Source: Promethearchaeota archaeon (GTDB lineage Archaea > Asgardarchaeota > Lokiarchaeia > Sigyniarchaeales > SOKP01). Taken from it: a stretch of DNA of 28,448 nucleotides. The DNA lies in NCBI GenBank assembly GCA_048941265.1, contig JBHLNT010000040.1, positions 1 to 28,448 on the forward strand. Direction: 5' to 3'. This document shows positions 1,343-17,809 of the stretch, piece after piece. Under the pieces are notes generated by a model that did not search any database, was not told the origin of the DNA, and worked only from the letters and a program-made list of their open reading frames with translations. The position numbers and the translations under genes were made by a program. Numbering within the stretch: the stretch's first letter is position 1; each line of letters begins with the position of its first letter.

Positions 1343-2761
1343 TTATAATTTCATTTCAATTAATTTTGCTTTGTTTTGTTTAACCTTATCTGGTGTTATA
1401 TCATACATCTTCCAAAAGATTAAGACTCCAATCCCTATATATATGGCTGGTAAAAGTCCAAAGTGTAATTGAAGCCCAAATAACGCACTCGCAGGTTGAG
1501 CTGAGGGTTTAGCGCCCTCCTTGAATCCTGTAAGTGTATGAACGATGGCTAGTGTTAATGCTTGAATTACTCTTGCTAAATTGAGGAAAAATTGACGAAA
1601 TCCTCCGTATGTAGATTCCCTTCGCTTTTCGGTCATAACTACGGATTCATCAATCACATCGCTAAAAACCGGTGTTATCATAACCCAAAAACCACCAAAT
1701 GCAAGTCCGTATAAAAAGAGCACTATCAGGTCACCAATTAATATCAAGTCACTGGTTAAATACATCATAAAGGTTAAAGGAGCTGCAGTAATTGCCATTA
1801 AACTAGCACTGTAGATCCAGGTTTTTCTATTATCTTGGGTTTTATTTGTCCATCTGATCCATAATGGAAGTGAGATTAATCCTCCAAAAAAAAATGCTAA
1901 TATAAGAAAAGTTACAACCTCCGGATCTACCTTTAAAATAAAGTAAGTATGATAATATACCGACGCCAGCATTAACTGAACCATTGCCTGATATAAAATG
2001 TATAATAATAGATATGCCAAATAATTTTTATGTGATAAAACACTTTTTACTGATTTTAAAAAAGATTCTCTCTCTTGTTGTTCATAACTCACCAGATAAT
2101 GTTGTACCGTTTCTTTATCATCAGTTATTCCCGCATACATAAGAAACCAAACACCAAGACTAATTCCTACGCATACCCACGCCATTATTGCATAAGAGCT
2201 AATATTTCCAAAATTTATAATCATTGGGGGAACTACAAAAGATAAAATTACTCCAATAAAACCAAAATATACTTCAAAGGTAGATAATATCCTACGCTCT
2301 CCCTGGTCTCTGAATTTATCTGGGCCAAGAGCCCAATAATTTACCGTAAAAAAAGATTCAACGGTATCGAATAAACATGTAGAAAAAACGAGCCAACCGA
2401 ATAAACCCCATTCAGAATTTTGAACAAAAATTGGTGGGGAAAATACTAGTAGAAAGCAGAATATCATTGGAATGAAGAAAACAGCGATAAATGGAAATCT
2501 ACGTCCCCATTTTTTCGTCCATCTGAAAGGACGATCGGTCAAATATCCTATCAAGGGATCGTTAAAAGCATCATAAATGGCATAAATAGTTACCCCGAGC
2601 CCCGCGAGTAATGAATTTAATCCAAGCTCAGCCTCATAAAAAAAGAAAATTAAAATACTGAGTACACCTTGTATTAATTCAATTGCTATGCTGGCCGTAT
2701 TAAACGAAGCCATATTCTTTTTAGAATGTAATATTATTGGTGCTTCTATTCTTTCACTCAT
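1343..2761 (-). CDS. MFS transporter, GPH (MelB-like) family
   Basis: About 12 hydrophobic segments, with the GPH motifs YDAFNDPLIGYLTDR, WGRRFPF and DVIDE...RRESTY. Confidence 0.92.
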   Translation of the reverse strand: MSERIEAPIILHSKKNMASFNTASIAIELIQGVLSILIFFFYEAELGLNSLLAGLGVTIYAIYDAFNDPLIGYLTDRPFRWTKKWGRRFPFIAVFFIPMIFCFLLVFSPPIFVQNSEWGLFGWLVFSTCLFDTVESFFTVNYWALGPDKFRDQGERRILSTFEVYFGFIGVILSFVVPPMIINFGNISSYAIMAWVCVGISLGVWFLMYAGITDDKETVQHYLVSYEQQERESFLKSVKSVLSHKNYLAYLLLYILYQAMVQLMLASVYYHTYFILKVDPEVVTFLILAFFFGGLISLPLWIRWTNKTQDNRKTWIYSASLMAITAAPLTFMMYLTSDLILIGDLIVLFLYGLAFGGFWVMITPVFSDVIDESVVMTEKRRESTYGGFRQFFLNLARVIQALTLAIVHTLTGFKEGAKPSAQPASALFGLQLHFGLLPAIYIGIGVLIFWKMYDITPDKVKQNKAKLIEMKL

Positions 2762-2768
2762 TCTCTAT

Positions 2769-2779
2769 TACCTCTAATA
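2769..2779 (-). promoter_or_regulatory. Shine-Dalgarno-like site (AGAGGTA)
   Basis: TATTAGAGGTA lies 7 nt upstream of the ATG at 2761. The identical 11-mer precedes the esterase ATG (24397-24407). Confidence 0.55.
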
Positions 2780-2953
2780 GATTTGATTTTTTTTATTAAA
2801 TTTGTTATTTCCTAATTTGTTTTTTAGATAAATAAATATTTATAACTAACTGCTATTTTTCACAAAATCTTTTAAAAATCAAATTTGGTTATAATTCAGA
2901 ATATAATTTTTAAATAAATGAAATTTTAATATTTAGACTGATTTTCAATAACC

Positions 2954-15345: not shown

Positions 15346-15524
15346 TTAAGAAGGGTTGACAATAGTTTTTATTTTATTAAAAAAAATCTTCTAATTTTTA
15401 CTTAACAATTTTAGTGATTTTATATAAACAATAAATCTGAATTGAAAATCGTTATTGTTTTTATTAACCCTAATTATAAATTTCTGAATTTTCATTAGTT
15501 TCTCAAAACGCATTTAGTAGAAAT

Positions 15525-15878
15525 ATGGATAAATCAAAAAATTATTACAAAATTCTTGAAGTTGAAAAAGATGCCAGTGAAGAAGAGATTAAGTTGGCAT
15601 ATAGGAAGCTGGCTAAAAAATACCATCCTGATTTAAACAAGAATGATCCACATGCTAAAGATAAATTCATTGAATTAAAAGAAGCATATGATATTCTAAT
15701 TGATCCAAAAAAACGTAAGATATATGATCAAATAGGATATAATCCTCAAAATATTGACTTTAGTGATCTTTTTAGTAAATATGATAATAGAACACTTAGA
15801 GAGCTTTTTAGATCCATATTTGGTAATAATATTAGGAGGGAACACTCCAAACCTCCCCCAGAAACTATGTATATCTAA
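15525..15878 (+). CDS. Small J-domain (DnaJ-like) protein
   Basis: NYYKILEV...[14 protein letters not shown]...[15 protein letters not shown]. No G/F region or zinc finger. Confidence 0.9.
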
Positions 15879-15907
15879 TTTTTGTTATTTTTATATATAC
15901 AAAATAT

Positions 15908-15979
15908 TATCCAAAAACCCGAGCAGGGTTGTCATCGTGCGTCTCATTTTTTTACGCAAGATTCATTCCAAACTGGATA
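15908..15979 (-). promoter_or_regulatory. SECIS element (eukaryote-like) in the 3' UTR of the selenoprotein
   Basis: The minus-strand RNA reads UAUCCA-GUUUGGA-AUGA-AUCUUGCGU-AAAAAAAUGAG-ACGCACGAU-GA-C-AACCCUGCUCGGGUU-UU-UGGAUA. This gives an AUGA/GA core, a helix II with 8 of 9 pairs, an A-rich apical loop and a UAUCCA/UGGAUA helix I. It begins 5 nt after the stop codon of a gene with in-frame UGAs. Confidence 0.88.
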
Positions 15980-15984
15980 TTTAA

Positions 15985-16500
15985 TTATAAATATTTATCA
16001 ATTGCTTCTGTTAGTATTTCTATTGATGGTCTATCTTCTTTACCACCTATATAATACCAAACTATTTCTCCATTTTTATTGATGAGTACTTTAGCAGGAA
16101 CAGCATTATTAACTTGTAAATCATCATGACCGTCGGTTTTTTCTGTTACAAACATATTGTATGATTTAGCTATGTTTCCACCCTTGTCAGAGATAATCGA
16201 GAAATTAAAATTATTATTATCTTTCATTTTTTTCAATCGTCTGATACTATCCTTTGCTATTGCTATTAACTTGACGTTGCGTTTTTCAATCTCTGACATA
16301 TTTTTGGTTAAGTATTTAAAATGCTTTATTCAATATACTCACCATCCCCCTCTAAAGAAGTCGATTAGAACCCCTCGATGATTCTTAAGCATAATCGCTA
16401 AATTTACTTCATTATCATCAATGTCGGTTGTTTCAATAAGAGGAGCTTTGGAACCAATAGGTAATCCTTTATTAGGTATAGTAATATGTAAATCTGTCAT
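15985..16500 (-). CDS. AhpC/TSA (peroxiredoxin-like, thioredoxin-fold) selenoprotein with a UxxU motif, 171 aa
   Basis: ATG 16500 reads MTDLHITIPNKGLPIGSKAPLIETTDIDDNEVNLAIMLKNHRGVLIDFFRGGW*VY*IKHFKYLTKN and continues in frame into the tracked 104-aa ORF (IISD...AKSY...VPAKVLINKNGEIVW...DRP). The TGA codons 54 (16341-16339) and 57 (16332-16330) occupy the CxxC positions of the family motif FxRGxWCPxC. Confidence 0.9.
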
Positions 16501-16703
16501 TAATATACAATAATTACATTAAAAATAAAAAAAATTCGGAAATAATTCAAAAAAAAGGTAAAGAATAACGATTCATTTGGCGTAAAATCTTAATATTCCT
16601 TAATCCTTGGCTAGGCAGTTAGCATACATCTATATTTTATACGTATACCTCATTCTATAAGGAATTAAACTAACATTTTTGATTACATCAGATATATTGT
16701 TTA

Positions 16704-16814
16704 TCATTTAAATCTCATTTCAATAAAATACACAAATTTTTTACAGCTAGGGCAATAACGGTATCCACTTGAATTTTCCTGCAATACATGTCCACATCTT
16801 TGGCAACTTATCAT
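16704..16814 (-). CDS. 36-aa zinc-ribbon microprotein
   Basis: MISCQRCGHVLQENSSGYRYCPSCKKFVYFIEMRFK has two CxxC knuckles (CQRCG, CPSC) 13 residues apart, typical of archaeal C(P)xCG one-domain zinc fingers. Confidence 0.65.
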   Translation of the reverse strand: MISCQRCGHVLQENSSGYRYCPSCKKFVYFIEMRFK

Positions 16815-17053
16815 ACTATATCATGTAGTTGATATTTACCCATCTTTTAAAGTTTAATTTTATATTTTAAAGGGATTTTGATAAAAAGAATAACTTATTA
16901 AACGACAAAAAAATCGATTTTTTATGATGAAAAAACGAACTTTTTATGGCTTGAATAAATTTAAATTATCCAACCCTATTATTATATCAATTCCCAAAAG
17001 TTTATTGCATCAAAATTTTATCTAAAATATTAACAGATAGGGGTTGTTTTTTT

Positions 17054-17809
17054 ATAAACATTGTTAAGATCATTGTCGATGGGTATGGCGGAGTAGGAAA
17101 AACGACCATGCTTAAAAAACTCGAATACGGAGTATTTGACCCAGAAACGAGATTAACGATCGGGATTGATTTTTTTGCTAAAAAAATAAACCTTTTTGGA
17201 CATAATGTAACCGCACAATTTTGGGATTTGGTCGGGGCGGCAAGATTTAATTTTTTACGGCCAATTTGCTATAAAGGAGCAAATTGCATTATTCTCGTTG
17301 CTGATCTCACACGACCGATAACTTTTGAGCGAATTGATTATTTTATTGATGTCGCTAAACAAGTGAATATAAAACCGAGTCAAATTATTCTTGCAGGAGC
17401 TAAAACTGATTTATATTATGAAAGAAGTGTAGACTCTTACTACTTATCAAATATTTTAGAGAAGCTTAATATATCAGAGTCAGTTGAAACTTCAGCAAGA
17501 AATAACCACAATTTAGATGAATTGTTTGAATTAGCAACTGCTTTGGCACTGTTTCATAAGGGAATGATTACTGAAAATGAATATATTTTTATTAAAGAAG
17601 AAATCAAACAAAGAATTCAAGAACCAATCCCTGAACCCTATGAAAAACTAATAAGAAAATGCTGGAAATGTGGAAAGTCTTTGTTCTTTCATGAGTTTTC
17701 CGATTCTAATAACAAAATCTATAGTGAAGATAGATTATTAGAATTATGGGAAAGTCCTTTTCTTGAATTTTTTTGCTGTGCCTGTTATAAAGAGTTGAAT
17801 TCCAAATAA
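17054..17809 (+). CDS. Rab/Ras-like small GTPase with a C-terminal Cys-rich (putative Zn) domain; start uncertain
   Basis: In-frame KIIVDGYGGVGKTT (G1, 17081-17104) lies upstream of the tracked ATG 17108. G2 is TIGIDF, G3 WDLVG, G4 GAKTD and G5 ETSAR. The C-terminus reads CWKC...CCAC. The start is placed tentatively at ATA 17054. Confidence 0.85.
   Translation: MNIVKIIVDGYGGVGKTTMLKKLEYGVFDPETRLTIGIDFFAKKINLFGHNVTAQFWDLVGAARFNFLRPICYKGANCIILVADLTRPITFERIDYFIDVAKQVNIKPSQIILAGAKTDLYYERSVDSYYLSNILEKLNISESVETSARNNHNLDELFELATALALFHKGMITENEYIFIKEEIKQRIQEPIPEPYEKLIRKCWKCGKSLFFHEFSDSNNKIYSEDRLLELWESPFLEFFCCACYKELNSK

Follow-up and report, generated by a model that had tools for sequence, protein, structure and literature searches.

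The 28,448-nt stretch of Promethearchaeota DNA analysed here (the window) carries on its minus strand a PrxL gene whose frame is broken by two UGA codons, and in the gap behind this gene lies a sequence that can fold into a compact RNA element (15908..15979). The arrangement raises the question of whether the element is a selenocysteine insertion sequence (SECIS), through which both UGA codons could be read as selenocysteine (Sec), and to which of the described kinds of SECIS it belongs. The analysis indicates that it is very probably the functional SECIS of the PrxL mRNA and a member of the lokiSECIS class of Asgard archaea. The element is predicted to be a three-way junction based on a kink-turn (K-turn), not a two-helix SECIS.

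The PrxL gene occupies 15985..16500 on the minus strand. The two minus-strand open reading frames (ORFs) at 16339-16500 and 15985-16299 become a single frame of 171 codons once TGA is translated as Sec (U), followed by a TAA stop at 15985-15987. The first in-frame UGA is codon 54 (16339..16341), approximately 370 nt 5' of the SECIS core, and the second is codon 57 (16330..16332), so that the redox motif reads FFRGGW-U-VY-U-IKHF, in which GGW-U-VY-U forms a UxxU box. The product matched the Pfam families AhpC-TSA (E 4.7e-23) and Redoxin (E 3.2e-16). On alignment with a bacterial homologue (L026), U54 and U57 coincided with both Cys residues of its WCPFC (CxxC) motif, and a further homologue (L027) has an in-frame stop at the position of the first PrxL UGA. 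The closest orthologue, from a Promethearchaeota metagenome-assembled genome (MAG), is 87% identical and has kept both TGA codons. Over codons 58-171, the two genes differ at 9, 3 and 21 first, second and third codon positions, respectively; of the codon changes, 15 are synonymous and 14 non-synonymous. By this pattern, the coding sequence downstream of both TGA codons remains under purifying selection.

The convergent neighbour is a plus-strand J-domain ORF that ends at 15878, leaving the 106-nt gap to the PrxL stop codon that had been reported in a preliminary description of the locus. Within this gap, the 5' strand of helix I (UAUCCAG, 15973..15979) was identified from minimum free energy (MFE) folds, a permutation of the flanks and a model-fitted alignment (A5, below). 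It is followed by the bulged strand of the K-turn (15963..15968), read from the sequence as G15968, a bulge of A-A-U, and G15964 and A15963 of the AUGA. The AUGA core itself (15966-15963) begins 18 nt past the TAA stop. Helix II, which was assigned from sequence and covariation, has nine positions in its 5' strand AUCUUGCGU (15954..15962) and returns through ACGCACGAU (15934..15942), with a U.C mismatch at position 4 and standard pairs at the other eight positions; it is capped by the 11-nt apical loop AAAAAAAUGAG (15943..15953), seven A followed by UGAG. After helix II come the GA of the tandem G.A core (15933-15932) and the conserved C15931, which pairs with G15968 (together 15931..15933). 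The non-bulged strand then forms a 3' mini-hairpin, AACCC-UGCUC-GGGUU (15916..15930), seen in MFE folds and by conservation, before the 3' strand of helix I (UUGGAUA, 15908..15914), which was recognized from MFE folds and permutation. Helix I pairs UAUCCA (15979-15974) with UGGAUA (15913-15908) and is extended in the MFE fold by a wobble between G15973 and U15914. The MFE structure of the 96 nt from 15895 to 15990 consists of exactly helix I, helix II and the 5-bp hairpin at 15930-15916.

The preliminary description had assigned helix I, the AUGA/UGAC core, helix II and the A7-UGAG loop from the sequence, and each was present on the minus strand where it had been placed. The 3' stretch that it had taken for an internal loop is instead the conserved 5-bp mini-hairpin (15930-15916). 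It had also named a rival hairpin, UCCA-GUU-UGGA. This hairpin exists, at -2.2 kcal/mol on the 5' 20 nt of the element, but is unused in the MFE fold of 83 nt. Of 27 orthologous PrxL elements, 21 gave 0.0 kcal/mol for this 20-nt stretch and six gave values from -0.2 to -2.7 kcal/mol; the rival hairpin is specific to the target sequence.

The source genome (5.01 Mb, 30.5% G+C) was searched with a strict pattern that comprised ATGA, nine positions with at least eight pairs, an 11-nt loop with at least four A among its first five positions and G as its last, and then GA or AA. Five genomes simulated with a first-order Markov model provided the null. The pattern gave 11 matches in the source genome and 0, 0, 0, 0 and 0 in the simulated genomes. 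Eight of the 11 sit 1-18 nt past the stop of ORFs of 72-171 codons with one to four in-frame TGA codons, including two FlpD/VhuD genes (Pfam E ~1e-42) and PrxL, and the ninth (16619-16653, in the window) lies 47 nt past a 36-codon zinc-ribbon ORF ending in TGA-TAA. A covariance model (R1) was built from seven other elements of the source genome, with the target excluded; it recovered the target with a score of 38.7 bits, for which E was 2.5e-6 within the window and 4.4e-4 genome-wide, and added an element behind a third FlpD gene on contig C251. For the remaining two strict matches (contigs C44 and C241), no TGA-containing ORF was found ahead, no downstream hairpin was seen by eye and R1 was silent. 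A covariance scan and a comparison with the other UGA-containing genes of the genome, two of the checks that the preliminary description had proposed, were both favourable to the element.

That such elements had been reported in Lokiarchaeota was confirmed by the literature. The lokiSECIS described by Mariotti et al. (2016, PMC4989117) has AUGA, a 9-bp stem, an 11-nt loop and GA or AA after the stem, and is located near the end of the coding sequence; the first five loop positions are mostly A, the last G is usually preceded by A, and the lokiSECISearch filter takes folding energies below -5 kcal/mol. Every one of these features was found in the target (AUGA, the 9/11/9 geometry, an A-rich loop ending in AG, GA, proximity to the stop, and a core that by itself folds at -6.9 kcal/mol), and the target also falls within the class by covariance, as scored with R1. 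Huang et al. (2024, PMC11227280) counted 1,224 eSECIS-like structures across Asgard genomes and named type I as the main form for prxL. The target conforms to their type I as well, which has a GA_[G/A]A core, an upper stem of 7-15 bp with <=2 mismatches, an apical loop of 8-20 nt and no ministem. This kind of SECIS is therefore already published (2016, 2024), and the target is a further member, ordinary for its lineage, which shares with the published elements the core, the PrxL family and the use of one SECIS for one or two Sec residues. The preliminary description had remarked on finding one element for two UGA codons. This is nothing unusual: PrxL.1 with two Sec in the redox box and one SECIS was described in 2016, and in HdrA-VhuD one SECIS serves up to six UGA codons (PMC4989117).

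The designation 'eukaryote-type' was appropriate for resemblance and not for membership. With eukaryotic type I SECIS, the target shares the AUGA...GA non-Watson-Crick core, unpaired apical adenines, a 3' untranslated region (UTR) site, action at a distance on several UGA codons and a helix I below the core. It differs from them in its shorter helix II, its extra hairpin in the 3' strand and a K-turn bulge with a conserved closing G-C pair. The target did not match the Rfam covariance model for eukaryotic SECIS (SECIS_1, eukaryotic type I, RF00031). Across the window, no Rfam family reached its gathering score, and at E <= 10 the region 15700-16200 returned no SECIS family, only noise (SNORD111 on the opposite strand, MIR1878 and miR-430). 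These blanks agree with the failure of standard models on Loki genes, as the archaeal, eukaryotic and bacterial SECIS models applied by Mariotti et al. found nothing in Loki selenoprotein genes (PMC4989117). A further difference from the eukaryotic system is that no SBP2-like protein was found in the source genome, only two short ORFs with an L7Ae domain (126 and 134 aa); the descriptions by Mariotti et al. (2016, PMC4989117) and Sun (2021) likewise give no SBP2. Compared by description, the VhuD SECIS of Methanococcales and Methanopyrus (PMC4989117) has the C after GA in common with the target, but also the euryarchaeal GAA_A bulge and a GC-rich upper stem. Nothing like the GAA_A bulge type, for which no dedicated scan was made, was seen in the target fold.

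Conservation of the element was assessed behind PrxL genes of related genomes. With the PrxL query used, homologues were found in 91 of 400 sampled genomes of the phylum (family f1, 85/134; family f2, 5/14; other families, 0), and every listed match had an in-frame TGA except one fragment that abuts a contig end. Of the 29 loci fetched, 26 have an R1 element just past the PrxL gene, and the related genes carry one or two in-frame TGA codons. At E <= 0.01, R1 detected no element after PrxL in the other three (L115, L120 and L121). Relative to the 87%-identical orthologue, helix II has undergone four compensatory double changes, while the AUGA, the loop adenines, the AG, the GA and the C are unchanged. 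The consensus apical loop of the PrxL elements is aaaaaaaUGAG. The support for Sec decoding of the upstream gene that had been attributed to the element was upheld by its lokiSECIS features, the R1 match, its orthologous position, the CxxC alignment and the purifying selection.

In the sister family f2, a scan for AUGA-stem-GA in the 3' regions of PrxL at six loci (L158-L163) found nothing. RNAfold structures of these regions, inspected by eye, showed a closing helix around a hairpin with an A-rich loop and a small hairpin whose loop reads (U/A)GCA. In these predicted folds, the second hairpin may have outlasted the canonical core.

To describe the architecture, 82 distinct elements were assembled, 10 from the source genome and 72 from related genomes, all found by R1 or by the core pattern only, with the flanks unselected. 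Three alignments were used: a near-gapless alignment of the 82 elements (A3), a gapless alignment of 28 PrxL elements (A4) and the model-fitted alignment A5. In A3, 93.6% of the helix II cells are paired and all nine pairs have changed on both sides. The covariation score of helix II was 0.701, compared with 0.222 after shuffling (reached in 0/500) and 0.108-0.156 with the partners slid. Position 1 of helix II (K-turn 3b/3n) is unpaired in 41 of the 82 rows.

Below the tandem G.A core, the closing pair -1b/-1n joins the C that follows GA to the G located two nucleotides ahead of AUGA; it is G-C in 79 of 82 elements and A-U in three, and no element lacks it. Because all three A-U rows come from orthologues of a single gene, they were counted as one event; in the PrxL elements, the pair is G-C in 28 of 28. 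At the adjacent position, 30 rows have U-A, 29 have A-U and 19 are without a pair. Judged by sequence, the strands G / A-A-U / G-A and G-A / C are those of a standard K-turn whose bulge is 3 nt long.

In the region of the mini-hairpin, the 24 nt after GA folded at <= -2 kcal/mol in 99% of the 82 elements and in 9% of the controls, which were segments 60-84 nt downstream. The mean energy was -4.46 kcal/mol, compared with -0.49 for the controls and -2.00 for shuffles of the same segments. When the halves of the hairpin were permuted between elements to give chimeras, the mean was -2.46 +/- 0.21 kcal/mol, and the native value was reached in 0 of 2000 permutations. For helix I, the flank duplex of the 82 elements gave -4.22 kcal/mol in the native combination and -1.90 +/- 0.20 when permuted, again with 0 of 2000 reaching the native value. 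Among the 28 PrxL elements in A4, helix II is 95.5% paired, the mini-hairpin 90% and helix I only 67%, the last because its register shifts by one column. RNAalifold, applied to the gapless PrxL alignment, predicted helix II alone; helix I and the mini-hairpin, whose registers differ by +/-1 column in that alignment, were therefore tested with a named structure, the model-fitted alignment and the alignment-free permutations given above. In A5, which leans towards its model, six of six helix I pairs and five of five mini-hairpin pairs have changed on both sides.

Two classes were separated by regular expressions. Class 1 (30 elements) has AGGA-yuGCn-UCCU with a weak helix I and lies behind genes ending in ...FAHYF, and class 2 (52 elements, the target included) has CC-yGCra-GG with a clear helix I. 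The stem of the mini-hairpin occurs as AGGA/UCCU, CC/GG, CGG/CCG and AGUUU/AAACU. A second covariance model (R2), built from A4 with the three-way structure, scored the target at 75.2 bits and recovered 54 elements in 77 sources, all of them non-PrxL except the window target and two in L025, the closest relative. Applied to 151 genomes drawn evenly from the phylum, the source genome included, R2 gave matches in 25/25 genomes of family f1, 1/5 of f28, 5/26 of f31 and none elsewhere. The six f28/f31 matches are GC-rich (47-59%) and follow the same plan of helix I, G(G/A)-AUGA, stem, A-rich loop, GA-C-A, hairpin and helix I, with (G/A)CCC-YGCRA-GGG(U/C) as the hairpin. Pairing between the apical loop and the mini-hairpin was also considered and was rejected, being inconsistent by eye over nine elements.

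This architecture goes beyond the lokiSECIS as described, in that the 3' 'internal loop' of the target forms a hairpin that is conserved and has a loop of YGC type, and the 3-nt bulge is closed by a G-C pair. The texts of Mariotti et al. (2016, PMC4989117) and Huang et al. (2024, PMC11227280) deal with the core, the upper stem and the apical loop, and state that there are no highly conserved nucleotides in the internal loop or lower stem. No mention of the mini-hairpin was found in these two texts, in that of a 2026 review (PMC13188914), in the SECIS passages of Sun (2021) and PMC11291895, or in full-text searches, a comparison confined to text and exclusive of structures drawn in supplementary material. 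The nearest likeness is the k-junction (Li et al. 2023, PMC10573300), in which an additional helix, on the strand without the bulge, turns a K-turn into a three-way junction. There, the extra helix follows directly after the G.A pairs, opposite the loop, whereas here it follows 2-5 nt after GA, past the -1b/-1n pair, and most of the Asgard elements have a helix I in addition, by which the junction is closed. In three dimensions, the core would presumably adopt a K-turn, and the mini-hairpin might be needed for function.

The genome also encodes several components of the machinery that Sec decoding would require. SelB/EFsec (contig C284) matched TIGR00475 at 246 bits, above the cut-off, SelD scored 185 bits, also above its cut-off, and contains one in-frame TGA, and SepSecS, cut by a contig end, scored 196.5 bits. 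No SECIS was resolved in the 3' region of SelD, where the true stop is ambiguous when TGA is read through. The finding at this locus confirms that the source genome, which is of Promethearchaeota type, uses the Asgard Sec system.

Several observations weigh against the assignment of the target as a SECIS. The MFE of the 96-nt region (-18.3 kcal/mol) is unexceptional, with z = -1.61 and nine of 200 shuffles folding as well. Helix II contains the U.C mismatch and the -2b/-2n position is G/A, on account of which the target has the lowest genome-wide R1 score among the elements of its own genome, and no Rfam SECIS family matches it. The elements of the relatives were collected with core models from the source genome, making the core statistics partly dependent on those models and leaving the flank statistics independent. 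For PSTK, only weak matches of approximately 32 bits were obtained, and tRNA-Sec was not found with Rfam or with ARAGORN when introns were allowed. The missing tRNA-Sec says nothing about its absence, because only 12 tRNA genes are seen in an assembly that is 91% complete.

These 12 are the tRNA genes that ARAGORN found, with introns allowed, in the whole 5.01-Mb assembly, and two long Rfam tRNA matches carry insertions of 22 and 31 nt. Many tRNAs of the assembly may be intron-rich, split or unassembled. Three Rfam tRNA-Sec matches below the cut-off were rejected, one being a tRNA-Arg and two ordinary intron-bearing tRNAs.

Among other explanations, the one that survives best, although it is very improbable, is that the element marks or protects the 3' ends of the convergent genes, with the GC-rich mini-hairpin and the following U5 acting as a terminator or stabilizer and the SECIS features being incidental. 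The location between convergent genes would suit such a role, as would the UUUUU directly after the target hairpin, which is mostly UUUU in the PrxL orthologues; elements that do not belong to PrxL have UA, UAU or similar at this place and no U run. Moreover, the sequence past the U run pairs and covaries with the 5' flank, a pairing that termination at the U run would prevent. A terminator scan found 0 sites in 15400-17200, and the AUGA/GA, the fixed 9/11/9 geometry and the tie to UGA-containing genes would be left unexplained.

The core GA-AUGA ... GA-C resembles the K-turns of C box/D box RNAs. A K-turn RNA of another function, such as an L7Ae-binding regulator or a small RNA of box C/D-like type unrelated to Sec, was accordingly considered and is slightly less probable still. 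The same three-way architecture follows TGA-free cysS genes in four f31 genomes, and the fold can for this reason also occur where no UGA gene is visible. Against this stand the eight of 11 strict matches that follow TGA-containing ORFs, the ninth behind an ORF ending in TGA-TAA and the element at 26 of 29 PrxL loci. There are also no C'/D' boxes or guide-length spacers in the target, whose hairpin is of 9 bp with an 11-nt loop, and the sole Rfam match to a C/D small nucleolar RNA, SNORD111, is on the opposite strand and scores 18 bits (E 2.1), below its cut-off of 46. Chance similarity within AT-rich intergenic DNA, for which the folding z-score of only -1.61 might be cited, has a negligible probability given 11 strict matches against 0 in each simulated genome, the R1 and R2 scores (E 2.5e-6 and 75.2 bits) and orthologous loci that keep the element with compensatory changes.

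With the element taken as the SECIS of PrxL, a mechanism can be proposed that resembles the one in eukaryotes and Lokiarchaeota. The SECIS would be transcribed within the PrxL 3' UTR and the RNA would fold as the K-turn three-way junction, comprising helix I, the G-C pair and A-A-U bulge, tandem G.A/A.G pairs, helix II and the 3' hairpin. The folded RNA would then recruit the Sec-specific elongation factor with Sec-tRNA(Sec), in direct contact or by way of a K-turn-binding protein. Both UGA codons, ~370 nt upstream at codons 54 and 57, would be read as selenocysteine to give the UxxU redox centre. Recoding itself and the identity of the binding protein are what we infer here.

A second SECIS, built on the same architecture, is predicted in the window upstream of the PrxL gene (16587..16667, minus strand), with AUGA at 16653-16650 and AA in place of GA. 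Its nine-position stem is complete with three G.U pairs, and is followed, after the loop AUAAAAUAUAG, by AA-C, a hairpin CCU-AGCCA-AGG and a helix I of CCUUA/UAAGG. It scored 28.3 bits with R1 (E 4.8e-4) and 57.4 bits with R2 (E 6e-15). The preceding zinc-ribbon ORF (16704-16814, minus strand; 36 codons, CxxC...CxxC), which gave weak zinc-ribbon Pfam matches only, ends in K-TGA-TAA, and the ORF, its TGA-TAA and the second SECIS are all kept in L025. Either Sec is the C-terminal residue of the zinc-ribbon ORF or the element serves another UGA. Comparison of L025 (1333-1415 and 2059-2141) with the window (16587-16669 and 15900-15982) showed that, in L025, the PrxL SECIS and the neighbouring upstream SECIS share their 3' half, with CCUAGCCAAGG as its hairpin and AUUAAGG as its strand of helix I. 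The PrxL SECIS of the window, unlike that of L025, keeps the PrxL-type 3' half known from other genera. This pattern looks like conversion or replacement between adjacent SECIS elements.

Other SECIS elements were found behind genes without a Pfam family. On contig C159 (L005:1778-2281 and 2374-2811, minus strand), two paralogues of ~146-168 codons contain adjacent TGA-TGA codons in the motifs GC-U-U-E and AD-U-U-AD, have a conserved C-terminus ...FAHYF past the TGA codons and are each followed by a SECIS; no Pfam family matched them. This C-U-U family has 103 homologues, all 'hypothetical', in MAGs of Promethearchaeota, Lokiarchaeota and Hodarchaeota. Most of these stop at the TGA (~122 aa), WW occupies this place in the long ones, and no Cys form was seen among the homologues aligned. 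Approximately 30 of the 82 sampled SECIS sit behind this (...FAHYF) family, which does not figure among the seven selenoprotein families that Huang et al. (2024, PMC11227280) list for Asgard archaea. Three more SECIS-linked ORFs had no Pfam family: a CxxC-rich ORF of 72 codons with four TGA (L005:1414-1629, minus strand), an ORF of 126 codons with one TGA in GGN-U-TMAFC (L007:1025-1402, minus strand) and an ORF of 98 codons with G-U-GC and a hydrophobic, possibly membrane-spanning N-terminal stretch (L008:1730-2023, plus strand). In four GC-rich genomes of the distant family f31 (L147, L148, L150 and L151), the full three-way element (27-31 bits) occurs 10-35 nt after cysS. The CysRS genes (463-498 codons seen) have no in-frame TGA, and wider views (L164-L166) showed no clear UGA gene within 2-3 kb on either side.

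For annotation, 15985-16500 corresponds to a single 171-residue UxxU selenoprotein, for which translation table 11 yields two short ORFs instead, and approximately ten other genes of the source genome are split by table 11 in the same way. What is of interest beside the published core is the conserved architecture of a three-way K-turn with a mini-hairpin, along with the unannotated selenoprotein candidates from a SECIS-first scan; R2, with the hairpin included, also picks out unannotated selenoprotein genes such as those of the C-U-U family. In the target and the more than 100 relatives examined, the K-turn is closed by G-C and covaries, and it is accompanied by a second, conserved hairpin and by a closing helix. 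What recognizes the archaeal SECIS was called unanswered in the discussion of Mariotti et al. (2016, PMC4989117), and a hairpin loop of conserved sequence beside a K-turn offers a concrete handle on this recognition. As a tentative proposal, rather less likely to be right than wrong, the small 3' hairpin (YGC/YGCRA loop, 2-5 nt after GA-C) might be an obligatory and undescribed recognition module of archaeal Sec insertion, conserved from AT-rich to GC-rich Asgard families, with aEFSec or a stand-in for SBP2 as its partner, and might have been lost by eukaryotes when SBP2 arose. The architecture would also alter the picture of eukaryotic SECIS ancestry.

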